Shown: positions 1,608-15,179, counted from the first letter of the stretch. The stretch is DNA of 15,725 nt from Pseudomonadota bacterium (GCA_018262285.1 JAGTRX010000096.1:1-15725); one strand, 5' to 3'. Notes: generated from the sequence alone by a model not told the origin. Numbers and translations: made by a program.

Positions 1608-1844
1608 TTACAGCAACTTCTTGACCTCGGCGACTTTGGCCTGCATCGCCGGCGTCAGTTCGGAAGGTGTCAGTTTGCTGATAATGCTGGACAGCACGCG
1701 TTTTTCATTGGCATCGACAATGCCATCACGCAGGGCGATATCGACGATGGATTGCAGTTCGTCGGGCAGTAGCTTGCCGTCGTTGGTAAAGCAGTCGATG
1801 GAGCGGAAGCTCATTTCCAGATAATCACGGCTGTCTTTATTCAT
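1608..1844 (-). CDS. Small acidic protein of 78 aa, translationally coupled to the giant ATPase gene
   Basis: The ATG at 1844 is preceded by GGAG (AAAAAAGGAGAAACAAATG). The ATG overlaps the giant gene's stop as ATGAATAA. The product reads MNKDSRDYLEMSFRSIDCFTNDGKLLPDELQSIVDIALRDGIVDANEKRVL.... The longer 99-aa ORF start is out-of-context Pro-rich junk. Confidence 0.6.
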   Translation of the reverse strand: MNKDSRDYLEMSFRSIDCFTNDGKLLPDELQSIVDIALRDGIVDANEKRVLSSIISKLTPSELTPAMQAKVAEVKKLL

Positions 1845-4800
1845 TTGTTTCTCCTTTTTTCCTGGGTTTGGGTACGGATTGTTGGGCGGCGGCGGGCAGA
1901 CTGCCATCCAGTTTTTTCAGTTCTTTGGCGATTTCGCGCACCTGATCCCAGATGCTGTGGTCGAGGCGCAGCTTGTGATAGTTTGCAGTAACCAGCGGTG
2001 CGATGCCTTGTTCGTAGGTTTCGGCCATGCGTTTGACGGCAGCGGCGAGCGCTTCCGATTCCGGTACGGCAACGTTGACTTCGGTTTTCAGGCCAGACAG
2101 AGCCTTGCGCAAGGCCTTGAGTTCGCTTTCCCAGTCCGGGCCGGCGGGTGGCGGTGCAGGTGGCACTTTCTGCTGCTGCAGCATGGCATCGAGGGTAACG
2201 CTGATGTCGGCCAGCAGTTTGGCCACCTTGGTGGCGCCGTCGCCTTCGGCACCGCCGAATTTTTTCAGCCGCCGATAGTCGTCGCAGATGGTGGTCCAGC
2301 GTGCCTGTTCCTCGGCTGTCGGGCGGCCGATCAGCGCGGCCAGGCGCAGCAGATTTTCCTCGGCGCCTGCCGTCAGCGTCTGCGCCTCGCCGCGGTAGTG
2401 ATCACGCATTAGCGCGTCGAGGTCGTCAGCGTTCATCAGGGCATTGACCTTGGCCGCCAGCTTGGCCATGTTGCGGTAACTGCCCTGCAGCTTGAAGGGC
2501 GGCTCGGTGCGGTAGGCGTCGTCCTGCGCAGCCGAGGCGATGTAGGCGGCGTTGACCTTCAGCAGTACGTCGCGCACCTTGAACAGGCGCTGCAGGATGG
2601 CGGTCAATTCGTTCAGTTCGGCAGCGCTGTACTGGTATGAGAAGGCATCCATCGCCACTTCCTCGCCGGCAGCTACCCGCACCAGCAGGCCGACATCCTT
2701 GGGGTCGCGTGTCGCTAGTGGCATCAGCGCTGGGTTGGAGGTCAGGCTGTTTTCGAGGTAGGAGAGGGCGAACAGCGCTTCGCGGCCGGAAAGGACATCA
2801 CCGAGGTTGTAGATGTCGGCACGGTTGGCCAGCATGTCCGGAATCTTGAAGACTTCGCCCGATTCGGTGTACGGGTTGCCGGCCATGACCACAGCGAAGC
2901 GTTTGCCGCGCAGGTCATAGGTTTTCGGCTGGCCCTGCCAGACGCCTTCGATGCGGCGGGTGCCGTCGCACAGCGCGATGAATTTCTGCAGGAATTCCGG
3001 GTTGGTGTGCTGGATGTCGTCAAGATAGAGCATGACATTGTTGCCCATCGCCAGCCCGAGGTTTAGCTTTTCGAGTTCCTGCGCGGCGGCGCTGTGCGGT
3101 GCCTTGCCGGGGTCGAGGGCGGTGACTTCGTGGCCGAGGGCAGGGCAGTTGATGCGCACGAACACCAGCCCGAGACGGTCGGCTAGATATTCCATCAAGG
3201 TGGTCTTGCCGTAGCCCGGCGGCGAAATGAGCAGCAGCATGCCCATGCGGTCGGTGCGGCTGTTTTCGCCGGCGGTGCCGATCTGCTTGGCGAGGTTGTC
3301 GCCAACCAGCGGCAGGTAGACGTCGTTGATGAGCTGGTTGCGCACGAAGCTGGACAGTGGCTTGGCCTGGAACTGCTCCAGGTGCAGGCGGGCTTTTTCC
3401 TCTTCCAGCAGGCGCTGGCGCAGGGCCTGCCAGCGCTGGAAGCCGGGGACGATATTCTGGCAATGGGCCTGGAAGCGCTGGTGGAAGTCGTTGAGATTGA
3501 GCCACAGACCACCGTCGACCAGACGCGGATGCTCGCCGCGCAAGCCTTGCAGCTTGAGGCCGAGACGGGCGTTAAGGCGCTGGCGCGGCAGGTTGAGGGT
3601 GAGCAGGGCGGCGGCTTCGTCGATCCAGTCGGCTTGCTCGGGTTCTTGCTGTGCGACATAGGCGTGCATCCAGTCGCGGGCCAGACGCCAGCACACCAGC
3701 GGCACGCAGTCGGCCAGTTGCTCGCGCCAACTGCTCAGCTTGCCCTGACGCTCCAGCGTACGGGAAAAGCCGTCAGCCAGATCGAGGGCGGCGCCGCTGG
3801 CGATCCAGGTGGCGTTGCCGGCTGCCTTGTGGGCCAGTTCCTCGGCCAGATAGGCGGCGGCTTCGCCAGCCAGTTCGGGGCCGACGCCCCAGAGTTCGAG
3901 CAGGCCTTCGCGCTGCCCGAAGGTGAGCAGCCAAGCTTGCCATTTGGCAATCAGGGTCTGGCGTGCTTCTTCGCTGCCGAACAATTTGCGGATCTGGGCG
4001 GCACTGGCGGCCTGACGCTGCAGGTTGGGACGTTCGATGGCCGGCACGCCTTGCTGCCAGTAGAGCATGGCCAAAGCACGGGCACGCGGCCCGTAGCGCA
4101 GCAGCGCCGCTTCGGCTTCCATGCGCAGCAAGGCCTGCAGCAGCGTGGCAGCATCATGGTCGTGAACGCCTTTTTGGTAACCTTCCTGATAGCGCGGTGC
4201 CGCAAAGCTGCGCACCTGCGTAAGCAGGGCTTCGGTCAGAGATTCAGTTTCGCTTTCTGCCAGCATGGCTTGCAAGGCATTCCATTCTTCGCGATTGGCC
4301 AGCGCTGATTCGAGCATGCGGCCGGCCAGATATTCGGCGCGGTAGAGATTGGGGCTTTCTGACACCAGCGCCTGCGACCAGAAAGCGCGTAGCGGTTCGG
4401 TATCGGGATGCGACAGCGGTTGCAGGTAGTCGGTGCCGGTCAGGTGCCAGTTCAGCCCCTGTTCGCTCGGCACCATGGTCAGATCGAGCGCCTGTTTGCC
4501 GATGGTAAACGCGTGGCGGCCGAGGCGAATGGAGTTGCCATCTTCCGCCACCATGTCTCCACGGTCACGCACCAGACGCAGGGCCTGATCGCGGGCGGTC
4601 TTCAACTGGGTGTCGAGATCGTCGGCCAGCACCTGGGCGCCGATGCCGCGCAATTCCTCAATCAGGCTGCGGCATTTGGCGATCAGCGCGTCACCGGCAA
4701 AATAGGCGTGCACTTCGCTGACTTCGCGGAATCCCTGCACCCGGCGCGGCACGCCGGTGAGGATGCGTTTGGCCGATTCGGCCAGATTTTGCTGGCGGCG

Positions 4801-7007
4801 CTGGCGAACTTCCAGCAATTGCTGTTTGCGGGCGGCCAGCGCTTCGTAAACGGCTTCGCGCTTTTCGGCCAGATCGGCGGCAAAGCGCTCGTCCTCGCCG
4901 AAACGGCCTTCCAGTTCCTCGATTTGCGCCAGCAGGCGGGTTAGCGCGTCGTCGCACTGGTCGGGGGTATCGGTGCGTTCCAGGGCGCTTTCGACCGCCT
5001 GGCCGAAGAGCTTGAACTGGGCGCCAAATTCCGCCCCCAGTTCCTGGGTGGACAGGCTCTTGCGCCGGTTCTTGGCGGCAGCGCGCAGGCGATTGACTTC
5101 GGCATAGACCGTCGACACCTGTTCGAGGATGGTGGTGCGGGCAACAGCATCGCCACCAGGCAGGCCACCGACCAGCTCGTTCAACAGATCAAGTCCGGCG
5201 CCGGTCTGGTCGAGCGCCTTTAGTGCCGTATCAAGGGCGGCGGTCTGGCTGGCCTTGTCGATGTCGGCGGCGGTTTTGGCCAGCGCCTCGTGATAGGGCA
5301 CGAAGGCTTTTTCGGTACCGAGGAAGCCAAGCGCCTTTTCGCCGATGCGGGTCTGTTCCTCGCCCAGTTGCGCATCGAGGGTGGCGATGCGGGCGCTGTC
5401 GATGTAGCGCTGTTCCTTCAGCGCCAGCAGGTTGCCGCGCTGGCGGCGCAGACGATCAAGGGCATCGACGAAATCCTGCGGGTGTTGCCAGAGCTTGCTG
5501 GCGATGTCGGTGAGCAGGACGCGCTGGGCAGCTTCGGCCTGTTCGAGTTGGCGGGCAGCATCGCGGCGGATGGCAGCAACCTTGTCGAATTCGTCGAGCG
5601 TGGCGCGCGCCGTGTCGATGATGGTTTGCACCGCCTGATTGGCATGGCCGGATTCATCGCAGTCCAGCCAGTAATAGGCGTCAAGAATGCGGCCACAGAG
5701 GCGGATGAGGTCTTCGTAAACGACGCGGGTGGCGACCTGTTCGCGCACGGCGCGGCAGATTTCCATCATGTCGGCAACGCCGCGCACCAGTTCGGCATTG
5801 CCGATGCGGCCAAAGAAACTGTGCTGATCGACCTGCTGATTGGCGTGGTCGTCCTCGCAGAACGGTGTCTGCCACAACTGCATCGGGTGATTGCGCGTCG
5901 GGTCGCTGTTTGCGCGTAGAAGACGTAGAGCACATCTTCGCCGTTGGGCGAGCGCACCGAGCGCTTGAAGCGAAAGCCGGCATCGGTATCGGCGGGCATG
6001 TCGAAGCGCTTGTTTTCGCCGGATTGCAGGTAATAGCCACCGGGGAAAATGATGCCGTGGTCTTCCGGCAATTGCACGCAGGAGCGACCGATGGCGTCGA
6101 TGCGGGCGACCTGCTGGGTGCGGTGGTTGTAGACCAGATAGCGGTAGTCGTCTTCGCGGTAAGGCTTGATCTTGAGCAGGATGAGCGAGCCGAGTTTGAC
6201 GTACTGGATATCGGCATCCACCAGCGCCTGATTCTGGTCGACCACCGGCTCGCTGTAGATGCCCAGTCCGCTTTCGGTATTGTTCTCGATCTTGACGGTG
6301 AGATCGCCGCCCACCGTTTCGACGAAGATGGTGTCGAGAATATTGACGTGCGGACACTTGCCATTGACGTGCTCGTCGCGGCCGGTGACGACCCATTCGA
6401 AATCGTGCGTCGGCGGCAGGGCAATGTCGCGCTCGCCGCGATTGTCGATGTATTTGACGCTGCCGTCGTTTTCAATCGACCAGCGGAAAACACGCAGATC
6501 GTTGACGGTTTGGCCGATCTGGAAGGCGGCCAGCAGTTTCTGTTGATTGACGCGTAGCCTTACCAGGCTGGCGTGCTTGTAGTAGGTATAGAGTTCGCGG
6601 AAATCGAGGACGAAGCGTGGGTCGGTCAGGAAGCTATTAGCCGGGTCGGCGGGCACCAGTTCATCGGCGCCCTCCGCCTCGTTGAGGCGATAGAGGCCGA
6701 AGACATCGGCAACCTGAATGTCTTTGCGCAGGCCGATAAAGACGTTGTAGCCGAACAGCAGGGTATCGCCGACGCGGACGATGTCGCGGGCCACGCAGTT
6801 GTTTTCGGTGCGGGCTCGCAGGCGGGCCTTGAGGCGCAGGTCGGACTTGCCGAAGGCGCCAATGCGCGCTTCGTTCAATGCCTGCACCTTGCCGACCAGC
6901 GCTTCGCCGTGCTGCATCAGGCGGCGTTTCAGCAGATCGTAACTGCCGCCCTCGGCGATGGCGGCGTCGATGTTGTTGGTGTCGTCAGTGGATACAGTGG
7001 TGTTCAT
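1837..7007 (-). CDS. Giant (~1,720 aa) multidomain protein with a MoxR/dynein-type AAA_5 ATPase. It is disrupted by an apparent 1-nt frameshift near 5895-5910, and the six-frame track splits it into ORFs 5766-7007 and 1837-6396.
   Basis: N-terminal ~370 aa are mixed and beta-rich (MNTTVSTDD...GEDVLYVFYAQ). A long alpha-helical/coiled-coil middle follows. Walker A reads LLLISPPGYGKTT. Walker B/sensor reads VMLYLDDIQHTNPEFLQKF...FAVVMAGNPYTESGEVFKIPDMLANRADI, as in AAA_5 (LLLDEINRA...ATMNP). A C-terminal helical tail ends in KPRKKGETNE. The in-frame protein sense switches from frame A to frame B between YVFYAQ and NHPMQLWQTPFCEDD. Confidence 0.75.
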
Positions 7008-7048: not shown

Positions 7049-7076
7049 AAGCCCGGCCGGAGCCGGGCTTTTGCCT
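7049..7076. other. Stable 9-bp GC stem-loop between the flotillin and giant-ATPase genes
   Basis: AAGCCCGGC-CGGA-GCCGGGCTT at 7049-7070, followed on the + strand by TTTGCCTTT. In the sense (minus) orientation no U-tract follows it. Confidence 0.4.
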
Positions 7077-9176
7077 TTAGCTATGCTTCGTAATCAGTTT
7101 TTGCAGGGCGGCGCGTTGCTCTTCGCTGCCGTCTTTCATCACCTTGGCGATCAGTGCGGAAACGCCCAGATTCTGCATTTCCGGTGCTGAGCTGCCGAGG
7201 GCGCCGAGCAGTTCCTTCAGATCGCCGACCATATCGCGTTCACCGGTCAGATGATCCTTCAAGGCCACCTGCAGGGTGTTGCTGCGTGCAATGGCGCCAT
7301 CGATGCCCTTGCCAACCGCCAGCGCATTGACGAAGCGTTCGAAATAGTCGCCCTGGCCGCCGACGATGTCGATGTTGGCATGGCCAAGCGCCGAGGACAG
7401 CACGCCGGCCTGTTCCTTGGCGACGGCGACCTGCGATTCGATGCCCTTCATGGTTTCGACGTGCACGTTCTGAACGCGCATGCGGTATTCCTCGTGCGCC
7501 CGTGTTTCCGGCGCCATGGTGCGCATGGCGTCGAATTTTTCCTTGAGACCGCGCGCTTCGGCCTGCATGCGGGCTTCGATGGCGCTGGCTTCGGCATTGC
7601 CCTGCTTGGCAACGGCCTCGGCGTCGGCAGTCTTGATGTGCACGGTAGCCAGACCGAGTTGCTCGTTACCCTGGGCTTCCGCTTCCAGTTTCTTCAGCAG
7701 GGCTTCGGCTTCGGCAGCGCCCAGCTTGGCGACGGCTTCGGCGTGGGCGATCTTGACGCGGGCGTCGACCAGGCCGGCTTTTTCGCTGGCGTCGGCATTG
7801 GCCAGCTGCACTTTGGCCTGTGCCAGACCGGGCGCGGCGGTAAAGGCTTCGACCCCCTCGGCTTCGCGCTTCTTGGCTTCGGAATCTTTCTCGGCCGCTT
7901 TCAGGCGAGCTTCAGCCAACACCAGATTCTGGCCGGCCTGATGCTTGGCACTGCGTTCGTTGGCCTCGGCCGCCTTCACCTGCAAGACCAGATCGTGTTC
8001 GGCCTGACCCTCGGCTTCGATGACAGACGCCTTGCGATTGCGGTCGGCTTCGGCCACTTTGCGCACTTCCTTGATGGCTTCTTCCTGCTCGGCGACAGTA
8101 CGCTCGACCACGACGCGCTCTCGGATGACGTCGGCGATGGCTTTCTTCTGCACTTCGACTGATTTGTCCTTGTCGATGGTCTGCAGCGTCACTTCCTTTT
8201 CGCGATCAACGATTTCGAGCTGACGGGCGCGGATGACACGCTCTTCCTCGATGGCCACAGCGCGCATACGGTTATTCTCGGCGACCTGCTTCTCGCGCTG
8301 AACATTTTCCTGCTGCACGAGAATGGCCTGTTCAGTCTGCAAGCGTGCCATTTCGGACTTGCCGAATTCTTCGGCCTGGATGCGCTTGGCTTCAGCCTGT
8401 TCGCGCGCCTGCACGGAGGCGATTTCACGTTGCTGGCGGGCCTGGGCTTCAGCCTGCTGGCGTTCGAGTTCGTAGACGGTTTCCTGCGTCTCGACGTCCT
8501 TCTTCTTGATCTGCGCCTGTTCGTCACGCTTCCACTGGTTGGTGCGGATATGTTCGGCGGCGGTCAGTTCGGTGATCTTACGGATGCCTTGGGCATCGAG
8601 AATATTGCTCGGATCAAGATGTTCAAGTTGCGTCTGTTCCAGATAGTCGATGGCGGCGTCTTCCAGCACGTAACCGGAGAGGTTGTCGCCGATCTGCTTG
8701 ATGATTTCATCGCGGAAACGGTCGCGTTCCTGATACAGCTCTTCGAAATCCATCAGCTTGCCGGCGGTTTTCAGGGCTTCCGAGAACTTGGCGGAGAATA
8801 ATTCTTCCAGGGTTTCCGGATGCGAGGCGCGCTCGCAACCGATGGTCTGCGCTACCTTCAGCACGTCCTGCTCGGTCTTGTTGACGTGCACGAAGAACGT
8901 GACCTCGATATCGGCACGGATATTGTCTTTGCAGATCAGGCCATCCTTGCCGGTGCGCTTGATAACAATGGTTTTGATGGAGATGTCCATCATTTCCATC
9001 TTGTGGATGACCGGATAGACCATGCCGCCAGTGAAAGTGACTTCCGGCGCGTCACGCAGGGTGTTGTTGATCATGGCGTGACCCTGTTCCACCTTGTGGT
9101 AGAACTTCGAGAACAGGGCAAAGATGCCAAAGATCAAAATGACTATGGCGACAACAGGGATAAGTAGTAATTCCAT
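7077..9176 (-). CDS. Flotillin-family protein (SPFH/band-7 domain, YqiK-like), 699 aa
   Basis: N-terminal TM helix (LLLIPVVAIVILIFGIFALF), an SPFH domain, then a long Ala/Glu/Lys-rich EA-repeat coiled-coil typical of flotillins. GGGAG RBS upstream. Sits immediately downstream of an NfeD-like gene, as in yqiJK/yuaF-floT. Confidence 0.9.
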   Translation of the reverse strand: MELLLIPVVAIVILIFGIFALFSKFYHKVEQGHAMINNTLRDAPEVTFTGGMVYPVIHKMEMMDISIKTIVIKRTGKDGLICKDNIRADIEVTFFVHVNKTEQDVLKVAQTIGCERASHPETLEELFSAKFSEALKTAGKLMDFEELYQERDRFRDEIIKQIGDNLSGYVLEDAAIDYLEQTQLEHLDPSNILDAQGIRKITELTAAEHIRTNQWKRDEQAQIKKKDVETQETVYELERQQAEAQARQQREIASVQAREQAEAKRIQAEEFGKSEMARLQTEQAILVQQENVQREKQVAENNRMRAVAIEEERVIRARQLEIVDREKEVTLQTIDKDKSVEVQKKAIADVIRERVVVERTVAEQEEAIKEVRKVAEADRNRKASVIEAEGQAEHDLVLQVKAAEANERSAKHQAGQNLVLAEARLKAAEKDSEAKKREAEGVEAFTAAPGLAQAKVQLANADASEKAGLVDARVKIAHAEAVAKLGAAEAEALLKKLEAEAQGNEQLGLATVHIKTADAEAVAKQGNAEASAIEARMQAEARGLKEKFDAMRTMAPETRAHEEYRMRVQNVHVETMKGIESQVAVAKEQAGVLSSALGHANIDIVGGQGDYFERFVNALAVGKGIDGAIARSNTLQVALKDHLTGERDMVGDLKELLGALGSSAPEMQNLGVSALIAKVMKDGSEEQRAALQKLITKHS

Positions 9177-9256: not shown

Positions 9257-9907
9257 TTACCCTTCTTCGTCGGGTTCGACCAGATAGCGCCGGGTTTGCT
9301 GATCGTAGGATACGACCGAAGTCATCGAGCCCTTATGCAGAGTGTTGGGTTCTTTGGCGGCAATCTTGATGTTGTAAGAGGCGCCGCGACTGGCGACTTC
9401 GCCCTGGCCGAAGTTTTCGGTAACCTTCAGCGTGGTGACGCGGCACTGCAACCCGATCAGGCTTTCGTTGGAAGGAGCTGGATGGGCAACGAACAGTCCG
9501 CGTAGCGGCCGCGAGAACAGGGCTGTGAAGAAAATGGCCGGGATCAGCGCCAGTACCAGCACCAGCAGGCCGATCAGGGTGCGGGTCAGACCGCCGGGCA
9601 GCAGCGGCAGTAGATAGCGGGTGACCAGGGCAGTAGTCGTCCAGCCGAAAATGGCGAGCAGGGTCAGCACCAGTGACAACGGGACGCCGGTCAGACTAAA
9701 GGTGACAGCGTAATGATCACCTTCGGCATGCGCGTCGCCATGAAGATCGCCATGGACTTCCGGGCCGCCATGATCGAAATCAAGGCCGTGATGGCTGACA
9801 TCGACCAGGCCGACGATGCCCAGCAGCCAGTACAGCAGCGCTACGCAGAGCAACACCGAATAAACGATGGTCGGCCATTCGGTGAGAATGTTGAGCAGGT
9901 TGTTCAT
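9257..9907 (-). CDS. NfeD/YqiJ-like inner-membrane protein (TM helices plus a C-terminal OB-fold-like soluble domain), the flotillin partner
   Basis: Two to three hydrophobic helices, a His/Asp-rich loop, and a C-terminal LQCRVTTLKV...GEVASRGASYNIKIAAKE beta domain typical of NfeD short forms. GGGAGG RBS. Lies directly upstream of the flotillin gene. Confidence 0.8.
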   Translation of the reverse strand: MNNLLNILTEWPTIVYSVLLCVALLYWLLGIVGLVDVSHHGLDFDHGGPEVHGDLHGDAHAEGDHYAVTFSLTGVPLSLVLTLLAIFGWTTTALVTRYLLPLLPGGLTRTLIGLLVLVLALIPAIFFTALFSRPLRGLFVAHPAPSNESLIGLQCRVTTLKVTENFGQGEVASRGASYNIKIAAKEPNTLHKGSMTSVVSYDQQTRRYLVEPDEEG

Positions 9908-9954: not shown

Positions 9955-10647
9955 TTAGCGGTTTTCACATCCCGCCAGTTTTATCCACAATTGCTCGAAG
10001 TGCCGGGAAAAACAGGCAATCAGTTCTGGGTCATCGGTGATGATCAGATTTTCCTCGTTGTAACGGCTGGCGCTACGGGTCCAGTTGAAGCTGCCGTTGA
10101 GTAGCCAGCGAGCGTCGAAAATGGCGTACTTGTGATGCATGTGCGCTTCGGTCTGGTCGACAACGACAGAAATGCCGGCCTGTCGCAGCGTTTCAACGTC
10201 GCTGCCACTGTCTGATGCCTTGTCGTTGTCGGTAATGAAGCGCAAGGCAACGCCGCGCCGGTGTGCCGCCAGAATGGCATCGCGGATGCGGTCGTCTGAC
10301 AGCGTAAAGACACAGACATCGACGCTTTTTTGAACAGCCTGAAAGCGCTGGCAGATGGTGTTTTGGCAGGCGTCGCCGGGAGAAAAGAAGACCTCCGAGT
10401 GAACTGGATTTCCGCGTGCGCTATCGAGCGCCCGCGCCACGCCTTCCAGCCAGCGTACCAGGCTGGCGGCTTCCAGCCCGGCAGCCAGCCGTGTCTGCAC
10501 CATTTCAAAAGCGCGGTTGCGTACCCGGCGCAAGCCTTCCTCCGGCGCACCGTGGCTACGCAGCAGATTGACCAGTTCGCGGCGCTCGTCGTCGGACAGA
10601 CGCAGGTCAGCGATGCTGGCTTCAAGGTGGTCGAGGATCGTTTGCAT
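9955..10647 (-). CDS. Phospholipase-D superfamily protein with a single HKD motif (Nuc/endonuclease-like) and an N-terminal ~100-aa helical domain
   Basis: HxKx4D motif HMHHKYAIFD followed by GSFNWTRSASRYNEEN (the GSxN...N.E signature). Single-HKD proteins act as dimers (Nuc, BfiI-type nucleases). The ATG at 10647 has no strong SD. Confidence 0.8.
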   Translation of the reverse strand: MQTILDHLEASIADLRLSDDERRELVNLLRSHGAPEEGLRRVRNRAFEMVQTRLAAGLEAASLVRWLEGVARALDSARGNPVHSEVFFSPGDACQNTICQRFQAVQKSVDVCVFTLSDDRIRDAILAAHRRGVALRFITDNDKASDSGSDVETLRQAGISVVVDQTEAHMHHKYAIFDARWLLNGSFNWTRSASRYNEENLIITDDPELIACFSRHFEQLWIKLAGCENR

Positions 10648-10804: not shown

Positions 10805-11887
10805 ATGAATACCAAAGGCCCCATCCTGCTCGCTCGCTACCTGGCTCTTGCCTGTCTGGGGCTCATCATCTATGCCAGCCTGCACCCATTTTCTGGCTGG
10901 CGCATCAGCGGCATTTCGCCTCTCGCTTTTCTCGAAGGCGGCTGGCCGCGTTACTGGACTGTTTTCGATTTGGTTGTCAACGCGCTGGCCTATCTTCCGC
11001 TCGGCTTCCTTTTTACTTTGGCGCTGGCGCGAGTTCCTGGTCGCTTCAGCGCCGCTGTGCTGGCGACGCTGGCCGCTGCGGCGGTCAGTCTGGGCATGGA
11101 ATGCCTGCAAGTTTATTTGCCGAGCCGCGTACCTTCCAATCTTGATCTCGTCTGCAACAGCCTGGGCGGCCTGATCGGGGCTGTCCTGGCCTATCGTGCC
11201 GGCCCGCGTTTTTTCCCGCACCTGATAGAGTGGCAGCACCGGCTGTTGGCACCCTTGCCGCATGCCGAGTTGGGTTTGACCCTGCTCGGCCTCTGGCTGC
11301 TCATCCCGCTTTCGCCGGAAATCCTGCTCTTCGGCGCCGGCGATGTGCGCGAAGTTTTTGATCTGGCTGGTGCCATGCCGTTTTCACCCGGTAGCAGCGC
11401 ACCCATGGAAACCGCTGTAATTGCCTGCAATACTGTTGCCGTCGGTCTGCTGGTGCGCTGGCTCGCTGCCAACACCCGTCTGGCTTACTCATTGGCGCCA
11501 ATTTTCCTTGCCCTTGGCCTGGCGGTTCGCTCGCTCGCCGCTGCCGTTCTTGTTTCGCCGGAACAGGCTTTTTCCTGGTGGACGCCGCCAGTTCAGAACG
11601 GTTTGCTGGCAGGCGGCCTGTTCCTGTTGCCAGCGCTATTCCTGCCGGCTGGTCTGCGCATCGTGCTGGCGGCGCTGGCGCTGATGTGCGGCACCGTGCT
11701 GGTCAATATCACGCCGCCCAACCCCTATTCCATCGCCGCTCTGGCCTCCTGGCGGCAGGGTCACTTTCTCAATTTCAACGGCCTGACCCGGCTGATTTCA
11801 ATTCTCTGGCCTTTCCTGGTCTTGCCTTTCCTGATGTTCTCCAATCGCAGGACGACCGAGAACCAAGCTACGGTTTTGCCGGATTAG
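10805..11887 (+). CDS. VanZ-like family membrane protein with a polytopic C-terminal extension
   Basis: VanZ signature FDLVVNALAYLPLGF (D..N...Y.PLG) and multiple TM helices across 360 aa. Confidence 0.75.
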   Translation: MNTKGPILLARYLALACLGLIIYASLHPFSGWRISGISPLAFLEGGWPRYWTVFDLVVNALAYLPLGFLFTLALARVPGRFSAAVLATLAAAAVSLGMECLQVYLPSRVPSNLDLVCNSLGGLIGAVLAYRAGPRFFPHLIEWQHRLLAPLPHAELGLTLLGLWLLIPLSPEILLFGAGDVREVFDLAGAMPFSPGSSAPMETAVIACNTVAVGLLVRWLAANTRLAYSLAPIFLALGLAVRSLAAAVLVSPEQAFSWWTPPVQNGLLAGGLFLLPALFLPAGLRIVLAALALMCGTVLVNITPPNPYSIAALASWRQGHFLNFNGLTRLISILWPFLVLPFLMFSNRRTTENQATVLPD

Positions 11888-12274: not shown

Positions 12275-13027
12275 TCACAATCTGGCCATCAAGGCCGTTA
12301 GCGCATTTGCCGCGCCCAGCGGCAACTTGTAGTCCACATAATCGGAAACCGTCGTCTGCCCTGGATTGATTTCCACTGTCGGAATACCGGCGCGAGCCGC
12401 CCAGACAACGGGCTGGGCGATGTAGGGAAAGACGCTGGTGGTGCCGACCGAAAAGACCAGATCGAAACCCTCCTCCAGTTCGTCGTAAAAACGCTCCATT
12501 GCTTCCTGCGGCAGGGTTTCTCCGAAGAGGACGACTTCCGGCCGCATGACGGCGCCGCAGGCCGGACACTTGGGCGGAATGCTCCGGCCTTCCAGACTCT
12601 CGATCTGTTCGCGCAAGCCGCAGGCGGTGCACAAGAGGCGGTGCAGGTCGCCGTGGATTTCAATGACATTGCGGCTACCCGCCGCCTGATGCAGACCATC
12701 GATGTTCTGGGTAAAGACCAGCACCGAGGCGAATTCCTCTTCAAGTTTAGCAATGGCGGCGTGCGCCGCATTAGGCCCGGCGCCCCGGCAGTTGGCTTCG
12801 ATCTGCGCCAGGTATTTCCAGGTAATTTCGGGATGCCGCCGCAGCATTTCGCCGGACAAGGCGTCCTCGATACTGTAGCCATCTTCAGTCAGATTGCCTT
12901 CGTACAGGCCGCCGATGCCGCGATAGGTGGGCAGGCCGGAATCGGCAGAAATGCCGGCGCCGGTGATGAAGAGAATACGGCGCGCTGTCGCCAGATGTTC
13001 GGCAACCGCGTCCAATAGGTTTTCCAT
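12275..13027 (-). CDS. cobB: NAD-dependent protein deacylase, Sir2 family (CobB-type sirtuin)
   Basis: GAGISADSGLPTYRG NAD-binding motif, QNIDGLH catalytic His, and a Zn-ribbon CTACG...CPACG. GGGGAG RBS 5 nt upstream of the ATG at 13027. Confidence 0.9.
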   Translation of the reverse strand: MENLLDAVAEHLATARRILFITGAGISADSGLPTYRGIGGLYEGNLTEDGYSIEDALSGEMLRRHPEITWKYLAQIEANCRGAGPNAAHAAIAKLEEEFASVLVFTQNIDGLHQAAGSRNVIEIHGDLHRLLCTACGLREQIESLEGRSIPPKCPACGAVMRPEVVLFGETLPQEAMERFYDELEEGFDLVFSVGTTSVFPYIAQPVVWAARAGIPTVEINPGQTTVSDYVDYKLPLGAANALTALMARL

Positions 13028-14300: not shown

Positions 14301-15179
14301 ATGCCAGATTCCCTCCAGCTTGAACGTTTGTTACATCGCGCCGAAGTCGTCCTCGGGCGGCTCGAAGCCTGTCTGCCGCCGGTACCACCGCTGCCGGACT
14401 GGCAGTCTGCCATTGCCTGGCGCTGGCGGCGTTCACGCACTTGTGGCTATCTGCAAGCGATCAAGCATCCGCACTGGATCACACTGGATGATCTTGACTG
14501 CATCGACGAACAAAAAGCCCGCGTTCTGGCCAATACGCGGCAGTTTGTTGCACGTAAGCCAGCCAACAATGTGCTGCTGACCGGTGCCCGCGGTTCGGGA
14601 AAGTCGTCATTGGTCAAAGCCATGCTGCACAAATTTTCAGGCAAGGGCTTGCGTTTGATCGAAGTCGACAAGGAGGATATGGTCGATCTGCCCGATATTG
14701 TCGATCTGCTGGCCGGTCGCCAGGAGCGTTTCATCATTTTCTGCGATGACCTTTCCTTCGCCGCCGGCGAATCCTCCTTCAAGGCGCTGAAGTCGGTACT
14801 GGACGGTTCTCTGGCGGCGGCTCCGGACAATGTGCTGATCTACGCCACCTCCAATCGCCGTCACCTGATGCCGGAGTATTTTTCGGAAAACATGGAAAGC
14901 CAGCGGGTCGGTGATGAAATTCATCCCGGCGAAGCGATGGAGGAGAAAATATCCCTTTCCGAGCGCTTTGGCCTGTGGATTTCCTTCTATCCTTTCGATC
15001 AGGAGGCCTATCTCACCATTGTCGAGCACTGGCTCAAGCATTTTGGCATTTCAGGGCATAATAGCGAGAATGTTAGGCGTGAAGCGCTGAACTGGGCGCT
15101 GGCGAGGGGAGCACGCAATGGTCGGGTGGCCTGGCAATTTGCCAAGGACTGGTCGGCGCAGCATCACAAGAAGAAATGA
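14301..15179 (+). CDS. DUF815-family AAA+ ATPase
   Basis: Walker A LLTGARGSGKSS, Walker B RFIIFCDDLSF. It is in frame within the 13710-15179 ORF. The 5' 591 nt of that ORF is antisense to mltA and is not coding. Confidence 0.8.
   Translation: MPDSLQLERLLHRAEVVLGRLEACLPPVPPLPDWQSAIAWRWRRSRTCGYLQAIKHPHWITLDDLDCIDEQKARVLANTRQFVARKPANNVLLTGARGSGKSSLVKAMLHKFSGKGLRLIEVDKEDMVDLPDIVDLLAGRQERFIIFCDDLSFAAGESSFKALKSVLDGSLAAAPDNVLIYATSNRRHLMPEYFSENMESQRVGDEIHPGEAMEEKISLSERFGLWISFYPFDQEAYLTIVEHWLKHFGISGHNSENVRREALNWALARGARNGRVAWQFAKDWSAQHHKKK

Follow-up and report, generated by a model that had tools for sequence, protein, structure and literature searches.

The closest described system is an operon in which, according to Ravi et al. 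2024 (mSystems, PMC11237479), a CesT/Tir-PspA pair is combined with an AAA+ ATPase fused to a coiled coil and a beta-propeller. This operon also contains a YqiJ/YuaF-type protein with three transmembrane (TM) segments and, in some Proteobacteria, a phospholipase D (PLD; HKD) hydrolase; abbreviated operons without PspA are widespread, flotillin occurs without the giant ATPase, and chaperone-like assembly of membrane complexes together with ATP-dependent membrane dynamics has been proposed as the function (PMC11237479). Here, we analyzed a 15,725-nt contig from a Pseudomonadota bacterium (GCA_018262285.1, JAGTRX010000096.1:1-15725; hereafter the window), for which one giant ATPase gene had been predicted from the sequence at positions 1837-7007. 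We regard it as practically certain that a PA3728-type giant AAA+ ATPase gene (DUF3686, DUF7902 and AAA domains) lies here in disrupted form. The family is widespread, its ATPases of ~1,750 residues lie beside a flotillin gene, and its architecture and operon are already known; we equate it with the family of Ravi et al. by matching description and operon, not by a common accession number, and the window contributes only a broken copy of it. Compared to the published operon, the window copy carries a 121-nt frameshifting deletion, no PspA or CesT/Tir genes are found in the window, and the PLD gene lies upstream of the NfeD-like gene, not after the ATPase gene.

The original prediction had read 1837-7007 as one giant open reading frame (ORF), which is refuted by the frames themselves. 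The interval measures 5,171 nt, which is not divisible by three, and an ORF listing resolves it into two minus-strand ORFs, 5766-7007 (413 aa) and 1837-6396 (1,519 aa), which overlap but occupy different frames. The first is protein-like only as far as ‘...GEDVLYVFYA’ (residue 365/366) and the second only from ‘...NSDPTRNHPMQLWQ’ onward; because the two ORFs are in different frames, the giant protein in the window is a conceptual join across a frame change at ~5908-5912. The joined translation has 1,723 aa compared to 1,763 aa in the best database homologue, P0001, whose gene is intact on a 19-kb metagenome contig (L001; ENA ERZ27276616 k141_3713451). BLASTN aligned L001 to the whole window in two blocks with 99.8-99.9% identity, leaving 121 nt (L001 9815-9935) without a counterpart in the window. 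It is the loss of these 121 nt, missed in the original prediction, that takes out 41 residues (‘PESGRYGLFTYNLINRNLGTPLLANGYARFEDGRVLVFQAE’) and shifts the frame at this point.

Residue numbers refer to P0001 unless the joined window translation is stated, conservation was read from 75 diverse sequences that are 31-71% identical to P0001, and structures are AlphaFold2 (AF2) models of residues 1-570 (predicted local distance difference test, pLDDT, 93.2; predicted template modelling score, pTM, 0.87) and 564-1763 (pLDDT 83.3, pTM 0.72), built from alignments of 86 and 75 diverse homologues, respectively. The deleted residues 367-407 are conserved, include the invariant G398 and correspond to three predicted propeller strands (E370-377, E387-394, E399-404). 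Upstream of the junction, residues 1-366 of the N-terminal ORF (window 5910-7007) are native, while the 47 residues that complete it come from reading on out of frame as far as a stop at 5766-5768. The effect is also visible in the Pfam match: P0001 and the distant members P0156, P0189 and P0401 cover the 448-position DUF3686 profile from positions 1-2 to 446-448, whereas the match of the window copy is strong (E=5e-151) but split, with positions 2-335 in ORF 5766-7007, 378-448 in ORF 1837-6396 and 336-377 absent. Two other features shared by the family are present in the window, namely DUF7902 with a single C-terminal AAA+ module carrying conserved motifs, and a same-strand position just downstream of NfeD-like and flotillin-like genes. 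The window gene is a family member by descent and, as sequenced, a disrupted copy that is unable to make the full-length protein. The locus should be annotated as a disrupted gene (or re-checked against reads) and not as a 1,723-aa protein.

All 13 single-nucleotide polymorphisms (SNPs) between the window and L001 inside the giant gene lie downstream of the frameshift and 12 of them are synonymous, the window differing from P0001 over the C-terminal part by one amino acid (Q for H1161); the deletion is therefore either very recent or an assembly artefact. We consider it a serious possibility, although not the expected one, that the 121-nt gap arose in assembly or consensus calling, or represents a minority variant, and that the organism carries an intact 1,763-aa gene laid out like P0001, in which case the single giant protein originally predicted would be biologically correct. 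The synonymous bias would then reflect purifying selection on the C-terminal frame until very recently, but a very recent deletion predicts this bias equally well. Similarly, the remaining window matches a contig with an intact gene at the near-identity given above and the junction (microhomology of 2 nt at most) has no repeat suggestive of recurrent natural slippage, but the deletion is clean with unique flanks and zero ambiguous bases, 121 nt of unique sequence are rarely dropped by assemblers, and no second contig with the sequence found in the window is on record. An exact-sequence look-up found no contig on record that encodes the truncated 413-aa product. Across the whole window, the 21 SNPs relative to L001 were clustered: 12 fall within 240 bp of the giant gene (window 3415-3652), 11 of these being synonymous, and a further 8 within 76 bp of a VanZ-like gene (window 11614-11689), three of them non-synonymous. 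The two clusters look like short recombination patches or strain-variant tracts amid otherwise identical DNA.

A functional split version of the gene or a programmed frameshift, yielding a separate propeller protein and a helical-AAA+ protein, is very improbable. The first in-frame ATG of the C-terminal part, at 5883, lies a few codons past the junction and would favour such a split, but it has no obvious Shine-Dalgarno sequence upstream and there is no slippery motif. Moreover, the junction removes the conserved residues and strands named above, the N-terminal ORF finishes in 47 nonsense residues, and, of the 69 representative clusters that reach 1,500 aa, all carry the N-domain. Programmed frameshifting was rejected because 41 conserved residues are absent relative to a 99.8%-identical contig.

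Searches for relatives recovered more than 5,500 homologues at E<=1e-10; those listed measured ~1,700-1,800 aa, and most of the named ones carried the label ‘DNA repair ATPase’, which is the database mislabelling that had been anticipated. An exhaustive search with the N-domain returned 715 representative clusters, in which complete proteins had 1,590-2,036 aa, nearly all with this domain located N-terminally, while shorter matches resembled contig-end fragments. A scan of one genome per species gave at least 588 loci, the best 80 of which were fetched for the neighbourhood work (counts are given per 81 loci). These came from Beta- and Gammaproteobacteria, Myxococcota, Actinomycetota, Planctomycetota, a metagenome-assembled genome (MAG) of Thermoanaerobaculia (Acidobacteriota) and one Clostridia-labelled MAG; plasmid and chromid records add Deinococcus and Hymenobacter. 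On contigs with the whole gene, a single match spanned roughly residues 1 to 1620-1760. A polypeptide of ~1,600-2,000 aa in one piece is a mark of the family, and each complete gene was a single ORF (77 of 77 loci); the N- and C-parts are therefore separate nowhere except in the window. Complete relatives from at least six phyla all have the two parts joined, not as the separate genes that had been considered conceivable. The P. aeruginosa orthologue (P0401; 1,746 aa) has the same Pfam architecture as P0001 and falls into a 90% cluster with 3,222 member sequences; a Pseudomonas-group protein (L026) is 84% identical to it and 49% identical to P0001. NCBIfam and PADLOC have no model for the giant ATPase family, and profile searches did not place the whole protein in a characterized family, giving only domains of unknown function. 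Of 72,556 plasmid records, 13 carried the module, most of these being megaplasmids or chromids, and it was absent from the phage records searched.

The minus-strand order in the window is PLDc_2, NfeD/YqiJ-like, flotillin-like, giant gene and a 78-aa ORF. When all ORFs of the loci were searched by phmmer with the proteins of the window, a flotillin-like gene was found upstream on the same strand in 74 of the 74 loci with enough upstream DNA, which answers the question of whether orthologues always follow a flotillin gene, and an NfeD-like homologue in all 72 loci that extend 3.2 kb or more upstream; the loci without these partners all have the giant gene as their first gene. Ahead of the NfeD-like gene, 36 loci carry PspA/IM30 and 34 carry DUF2170 (YjfI, CesT/Tir-like). 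The 699-aa flotillin-like protein has an N-terminal TM helix (residues 3-25), an SPFH-like region and a long charged coiled-coil region. NCBI, JGI and UniRef call its homologues ‘flotillin family protein’, ‘YqiK’ or ‘Band 7 protein’, one homologue matches PF01145, and PGAP annotates the one on plasmid pQBR103 as an ‘SPFH domain-containing protein’. The window protein itself gave no Pfam-A Band_7 or Flot match even at E<=5, and this flotillin subfamily seems to lie outside current Pfam models. The NfeD-like protein likewise had no Pfam match; it corresponds to the YqiJ/YuaF-type partner of PMC11237479.

The AAA+ motifs quoted in the original prediction are all real and on the minus strand, at residues 1265-1399 of the joined translation, within the range then given and after a long helical region. 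Walker A (GYGKTT) lies at window 3199-3216, Walker B (LYLDDIQH) at 3007-3030, sensor 1 (VVMAGNP) at 2872-2892 and DMLANRADI, which holds the candidate arginine finger R1436, at 2812-2838. The P-loop residues P1304, G1305 and G1307, the sensor-1 residues G1417 and P1419, and R1436 are invariant, and K1308, D1370, D1371 and N1418 are at least 90% conserved; since the catalytic AAA+ residues are conserved, an active enzyme would be expected. An AAA+ module near the C-terminus thus stands, whereas its assignment to AAA_5 specifically is marginal: AAA_5 (PF07728) scored 30.8 bits (cut-off 22), AAA (PF00004) 31.0 and AAA_22 28.1, and the tie of AAA_5 and AAA at ~31 bits is repeated in other family members. 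The best compact Foldseek matches of the AAA+ core were CbbQ (6l1q, TMt 0.62) and NorQ (0.5-0.58), with RuvB and dynein modules next. When the PDB was searched by sequence, P0001, the AAA+ region and a family profile gave only P-loop-level matches (midasin, Rix7, RuvB; E>=1e-3), and no solved structure is related by detectable sequence similarity beyond the P-loop.

Similar to the MoxR class (CbbQ, NorQ, RavA; AAA_5), the giant ATPase has only one AAA+ module, and in it a beta-hairpin precedes sensor 1. The AF2 model places this hairpin between the Walker B and sensor 1 strands (model residues 829-842). AAA_5 is above its gathering threshold, but plain AAA scores equally. By analogy with the working mode of that class, it is probably a chaperone- or remodeller-type ring ATPase. 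However, members of the MoxR class are compact (about 250-500 aa), whereas the giant ATPase, with 1,763 aa, is ~five times larger, carries ~1,290 residues of N-terminal domains and has DD in Walker B; the contrast originally drawn with compact MoxR, RavA and McrB enzymes is upheld. The MoxR class also usually pairs with a VWA-domain gene, whereas the partners here are SPFH, NfeD and PspA proteins, and no VWA family was found among the called genes of two loci (L001 and L083).

The overall layout proposed for the protein, with a beta-rich N-domain, ~860 aa of mostly helical sequence, an AAA+ module near the C-terminus and a helical tail, holds in the intact orthologue and in distant relatives (Table 1), and AF2 modelling, which had been suggested as a check, broadly agreed with the domain order and predicted an N-terminal propeller as well as folded domains within the ‘spacer’. 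The N-terminal ~370 aa, described as having no assignable motif, contain the quoted FRWSIENDG... stretch (6381-6488, minus strand); they match DUF3686 and are predicted to fold as a beta-propeller. For the intact propeller-like domain (residues 58-420), DSSP assigned 26 strands in the AF2 model, a number suggestive of six to seven blades of four strands each. Its Foldseek matches in the PDB were the propellers of Elp1, DCAF1 WD40, YncE, LRRK2 WD40 and prolyl oligopeptidase (E 4.5e-8 to 1e-5, prob 1.00, with low TM-scores). The preceding long helix (residues 8-52) packs in the model alongside the helices that follow the propeller.

The length of the ~850-aa helical spacer was correct, but it is more than a spacer. 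Helical region 1 consists of a bundle beside the propeller, DUF7902 (residues 607-691, window 5056-5310, E=2.1e-24) and low-confidence coiled-coil-like helices (~693-777); it is followed by a small beta unit that adjoins the invariant D855 and G870, and by an all-alpha domain of ~380 aa modelled with pLDDT mostly >90. The latter contains the invariant E924, G987, H989 and D992 and a GVHDHDA motif (GVHDxDA; window 4150-4170), and the stretch of residues 858-1284 matched zero Pfam families even at E<=1. The model makes this domain a candidate binding or catalytic site, and its invariant H/D motif may mark a catalytic site additional to that of the AAA+ module. The ~250-aa C-terminal tail is helical as described, but ~160 aa of it are the conserved AAA+ lid and helical extension, in which R1540, P1543 and R1552 are invariant within YRTEPPFKLQGSYRNM (window 2467-2514); R1540 and R1552 are candidate sensor-2 residues. 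The remaining tail (residues 1626-1763) has no consensus residue in the 75-sequence alignment. Hydrophobicity analysis found no TM segment in the giant protein, and the intact protein of ~1,760 aa is predicted to be soluble.

Table 1 Positions of the disrupted giant ATPase gene, its domains and the neighbouring genes in the window.
Feature	Position	Strand	Evidence
N-terminal ORF of the disrupted giant gene (413 aa)	5766..7007	-	Pfam DUF3686 E=5e-151, positions 2-335/448
C-terminal 1,356 codons of the giant gene (P0001 408-1763 + stop), other frame	1837..5907	-	ORF listing, motifs
Deletion junction	5908..5912	-	BLASTN of window against L001, junction sequences
N-terminal long helix (residues 8-52)	6852..6986	-	AF2 model
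Beta-propeller-like domain, retained part (residues 58-366)	5910..6836	-	AF2 model, DSSP
Helical region 1 (residues 426-865)	4534..5853	-	AF2 models, Pfam
Small beta unit (residues 866-904, ‘SIRLGRHAFTIG...’)	4417..4533	-	AF2 strands (model numbering 303-341)
Conserved all-alpha domain immediately preceding the AAA+ module (residues 908-1283)	3280..4407	-	AF2, invariant columns
AAA+ ATPase core (residues 1298-1463)	2740..3237	-	Pfam, AF2, Foldseek
AAA+ lid and helical extension (residues 1464-1625)	2254..2739	-	AF2, invariant columns
Variable helical, proline-rich C-terminal tail (residues 1626-1763)	1840..2253	-	pLDDT 35-75
Flotillin/SPFH-like membrane protein gene (699 aa)	7077..9176	-	Homologue names, TM 3-25
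NfeD/YqiJ-like membrane protein gene (216 aa)	9257..9907	-	Translation, hydrophobic segments and C-terminal soluble part
PLD/HKD-superfamily hydrolase gene (230 aa), accessory	9955..10647	-	Pfam PLDc_2 E=1.4e-30
78-aa ORF, occasional accessory gene	1608..1844	-	Sequence; called as gene on L001

In P. aeruginosa (locus L083), the genes are arranged as DUF2170, PspA, NfeD-like, flotillin-like, giant gene, PLD, YaeQ, RecJ and LasB. On the PAO1 map we take lasB to be PA3724 and recJ to be PA3725, and this gene order combined with these numbers would make the giant gene PA3728. The ‘bac’ cluster PA3732-PA3729 adjoins PA3728 (PMC2587700, PMC10948618), and the flotillin PaFlo3 is PA14_16180 (PMC13086221). 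PA3728-PA3732 were reportedly up-regulated in all phage-infected P. aeruginosa samples (PMC12041424), and PA3728 (‘ATPase’) is listed with the genes recurrently mutated in cystic-fibrosis isolates (PMC8190622, PMC4199492). P. aeruginosa lacking all nine of its SPFH genes shows only mild phenotypes (PMC13086221).

For the mechanism, we tentatively propose, with chances that we place just short of even, that by analogy the giant ATPase acts as an ATP-driven remodeller of flotillin/PspA assemblies. Through its AAA+ module, the protein would oligomerize into a ring on the cytoplasmic side of the inner membrane; its propeller and helical domains would dock on flotillin/NfeD and/or PspA oligomers, and ATP hydrolysis would assemble, disassemble or remodel the docked oligomers under envelope stress. 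The proposal is based on the architecture, the conserved catalytic residues, a soluble protein, the SPFH/NfeD linkage and the frequent PspA linkage, and on the co-induction of the giant gene with psp-like genes in one species (PMC12041424). The two parts taken together, a disrupted family copy and a remodelling ATPase, form the overall explanation that we favour with moderate confidence. Several points weigh against it. The 121-nt gap could, by its sequence, be either a very recent deletion or an assembly artefact. Walker B reads DD and not the usual DE, and for this reason the rate of hydrolysis is uncertain. We infer both the PA3728 identity of the giant gene (from gene order and assumed locus numbers) and physical contact with flotillin or PspA (from gene order and co-expression alone). 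Deletion of PaFlo3/PA14_16180 gave only a marginal biofilm phenotype (PMC13086221). Finally, literature searches for DUF3686, PF12458 and DUF7902 returned zero papers, and no biochemical experiment on any family member was found in the literature.

Pairings of SPFH proteins with AAA+ enzymes include HflK/C with FtsH and prohibitins with the m-AAA protease; Vps4 acts on ESCRT-III, and PspA belongs to the ESCRT-III superfamily. A stronger version of the proposal, that the giant ATPase would be a dedicated, obligate remodeller of flotillin (and PspA) assemblies and a bacterial counterpart of the Vps4/ESCRT-III pair, appears somewhat unlikely to us. The propeller and the all-alpha domain (E924, G987, H989, D992) would then recognize the SPFH/NfeD cage. 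The one-sided linkage of the genes would fit this, as the ATPase never occurred without flotillin in the examined loci whereas flotillin also exists without the ATPase (PMC11237479). The likeness to FtsH-HflK/C and Vps4-ESCRT-III is that of an AAA+ enzyme genetically coupled to an SPFH scaffold, in half of the loci also to PspA. However, the giant ATPase has no protease domain, TM anchor or MIT domain, and its AAA+ module is not detectably nearer to FtsH or Vps4 than to other clades; this is an analogy only, and membership is not claimed. An ATPase that always lies beside one flotillin subfamily, across at least six phyla, offers an experimental handle on what bacterial flotillins do; the family is a potentially informative partner of bacterial flotillins.

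The PLD gene and the response to phage bear on a different role, in which the module would be a membrane-associated anti-phage or conflict system, with flotillin/NfeD sensing a perturbation, the AAA+ protein transducing it and the PLD protein acting as a nuclease or phospholipase effector; we consider this improbable. The PLDc_2 neighbour does resemble defence PLD components in PADLOC, although weakly (MkoC 1.4e-8, DpdK, DrmC), but a PLD homologue was present in only 17 of the 81 loci (~20%), and PADLOC-DB 2.0 gave no significant match for the giant, flotillin-like and NfeD-like proteins, the giant protein matching only LmuB (1.5e-4, coiled coil) and IetA (1.6e-3, P-loop). Induction of PA3728-PA3732 by phage infection (PMC12041424), a patchy distribution among Pseudomonas species with horizontal gene transfer proposed for the flotillin partner (PMC13086221), a copy on the megaplasmid pQBR103 and an insertion between the flotillin and giant genes of Lampropedia hyalina that resembles a toxin-antitoxin pair by eye would all fit such a system. 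Against this, the gene looks common in P. aeruginosa, given the single large cluster mentioned above, no phage-borne copies were found in the records searched, plasmid copies were as rare and as confined to megaplasmids and chromids as stated, and the recurrent linkage is to PspA and polyamine envelope-stress genes.

The label ‘DNA repair ATPase’ would imply an SMC-like enzyme whose coiled coil acts on DNA like SMC, RecN or Rad50, a function that we find hardly credible. It appears in the Pfam text for DUF3686 (‘ATPase involved in DNA repair’) and as the NCBI name, and is explained by a coiled-coil-rich protein with a P-loop; these are features of a long helical protein that the giant ATPase shares with SMC, RecN and Rad50. 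Compared to these, it has an AAA+ fold with Walker A and B ~60 residues apart in one contiguous module (1305-1371) instead of a split ABC/SMC head, lacks a signature motif or hinge, and gave no SMC, RecN or Rad50 (SMC_N, AAA_23-type) match in Pfam or NCBIfam. Weak RuvB_N matches occurred at the P-loop, but the RuvB scores of ~17-18 bits lie far below the cut-offs of 27 and 282-299 bits. The weak match of the helical region to the SMC-like LmuB (E=1.5e-4) lies within the low-confidence coiled coil and is, like a syntaxin match in helical region 1, probably compositional. In P. aeruginosa the giant gene does have recJ nearby, but it is genes for membrane proteins that adjoin it invariably, and Pfam detected no DNA-binding domain. 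The label is unsupported, and no evidence for a DNA-repair function was found.

Among the accessory genes, the PLD gene lies upstream of the NfeD-like gene in the window, whereas in most other loci, P. aeruginosa included, it comes just after the giant gene. The 78-aa ORF has a GGAG Shine-Dalgarno sequence ahead of its ATG and overlaps the stop of the giant gene by 8 nt, an arrangement suggestive of translational coupling. Homologues of this ORF were found in 9 of the 81 loci; in Pseudomonas and Lysobacter they separate the flotillin gene from the giant gene, and elsewhere they come after the latter. The protein had no Pfam or PADLOC match, and its ‘DGxLxxxEL...RDGxxDxNE’ pattern is TerB-like by eye only, without a model match.

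The 69-nt gap between the flotillin-like and giant genes contains a perfect 9-bp GC-rich hairpin, AAGCCCGGC-TCCG-GCCGGGCTT (window 7049-7070). It is not a canonical terminator because no T-run follows on the minus strand, and may instead serve as an attenuator or in the processing or stability of the mRNA. A scan for promoters and terminators was at chance level (2 promoter-like sites compared to 2.5 expected, 12 terminator-like sites compared to 11.6). In several other loci, mostly of Burkholderiales, the flotillin-like and giant genes are separated by a conserved ORF of ~180 aa with paired CxxC motifs (zinc-ribbon-like; L004 9376-9924, L005 8448-9014, L009 9351-9884, L012 9417-9947, L013 3040-3612, L028 9441-10004 and L043 9343-9933), none of which is present in the window. 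The insertion in L. hyalina (L027 6600-9990) amounts to 3.4 kb and includes a 512-aa ORF; within it, a nucleotidyltransferase ORF is followed by a HEPN-like ORF, a pair judged by eye to be of the toxin-antitoxin type.

A few kb from the module, the window also carries a SIR2-family gene (12275-13027, minus strand) and a DUF815 AAA-type gene (14301-15179, plus strand), the latter with weak PADLOC matches to mad8 and SspF (E ~1e-6 to 1e-5); neither is kept beside the module in the other loci inspected. The full module of NfeD-like, SPFH and giant ATPase genes was found on pQBR103, a 425-kb Pseudomonas fluorescens megaplasmid (L084; NC_009444.1, 86.4-97.6 kb), directly after genes for DUF2491, DUF350, DUF1190 and glutathionylspermidine synthase, a gene set characteristic of PspA operons of the YjfJ type. 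The module can thus travel on large plasmids together with polyamine-linked envelope-stress genes.

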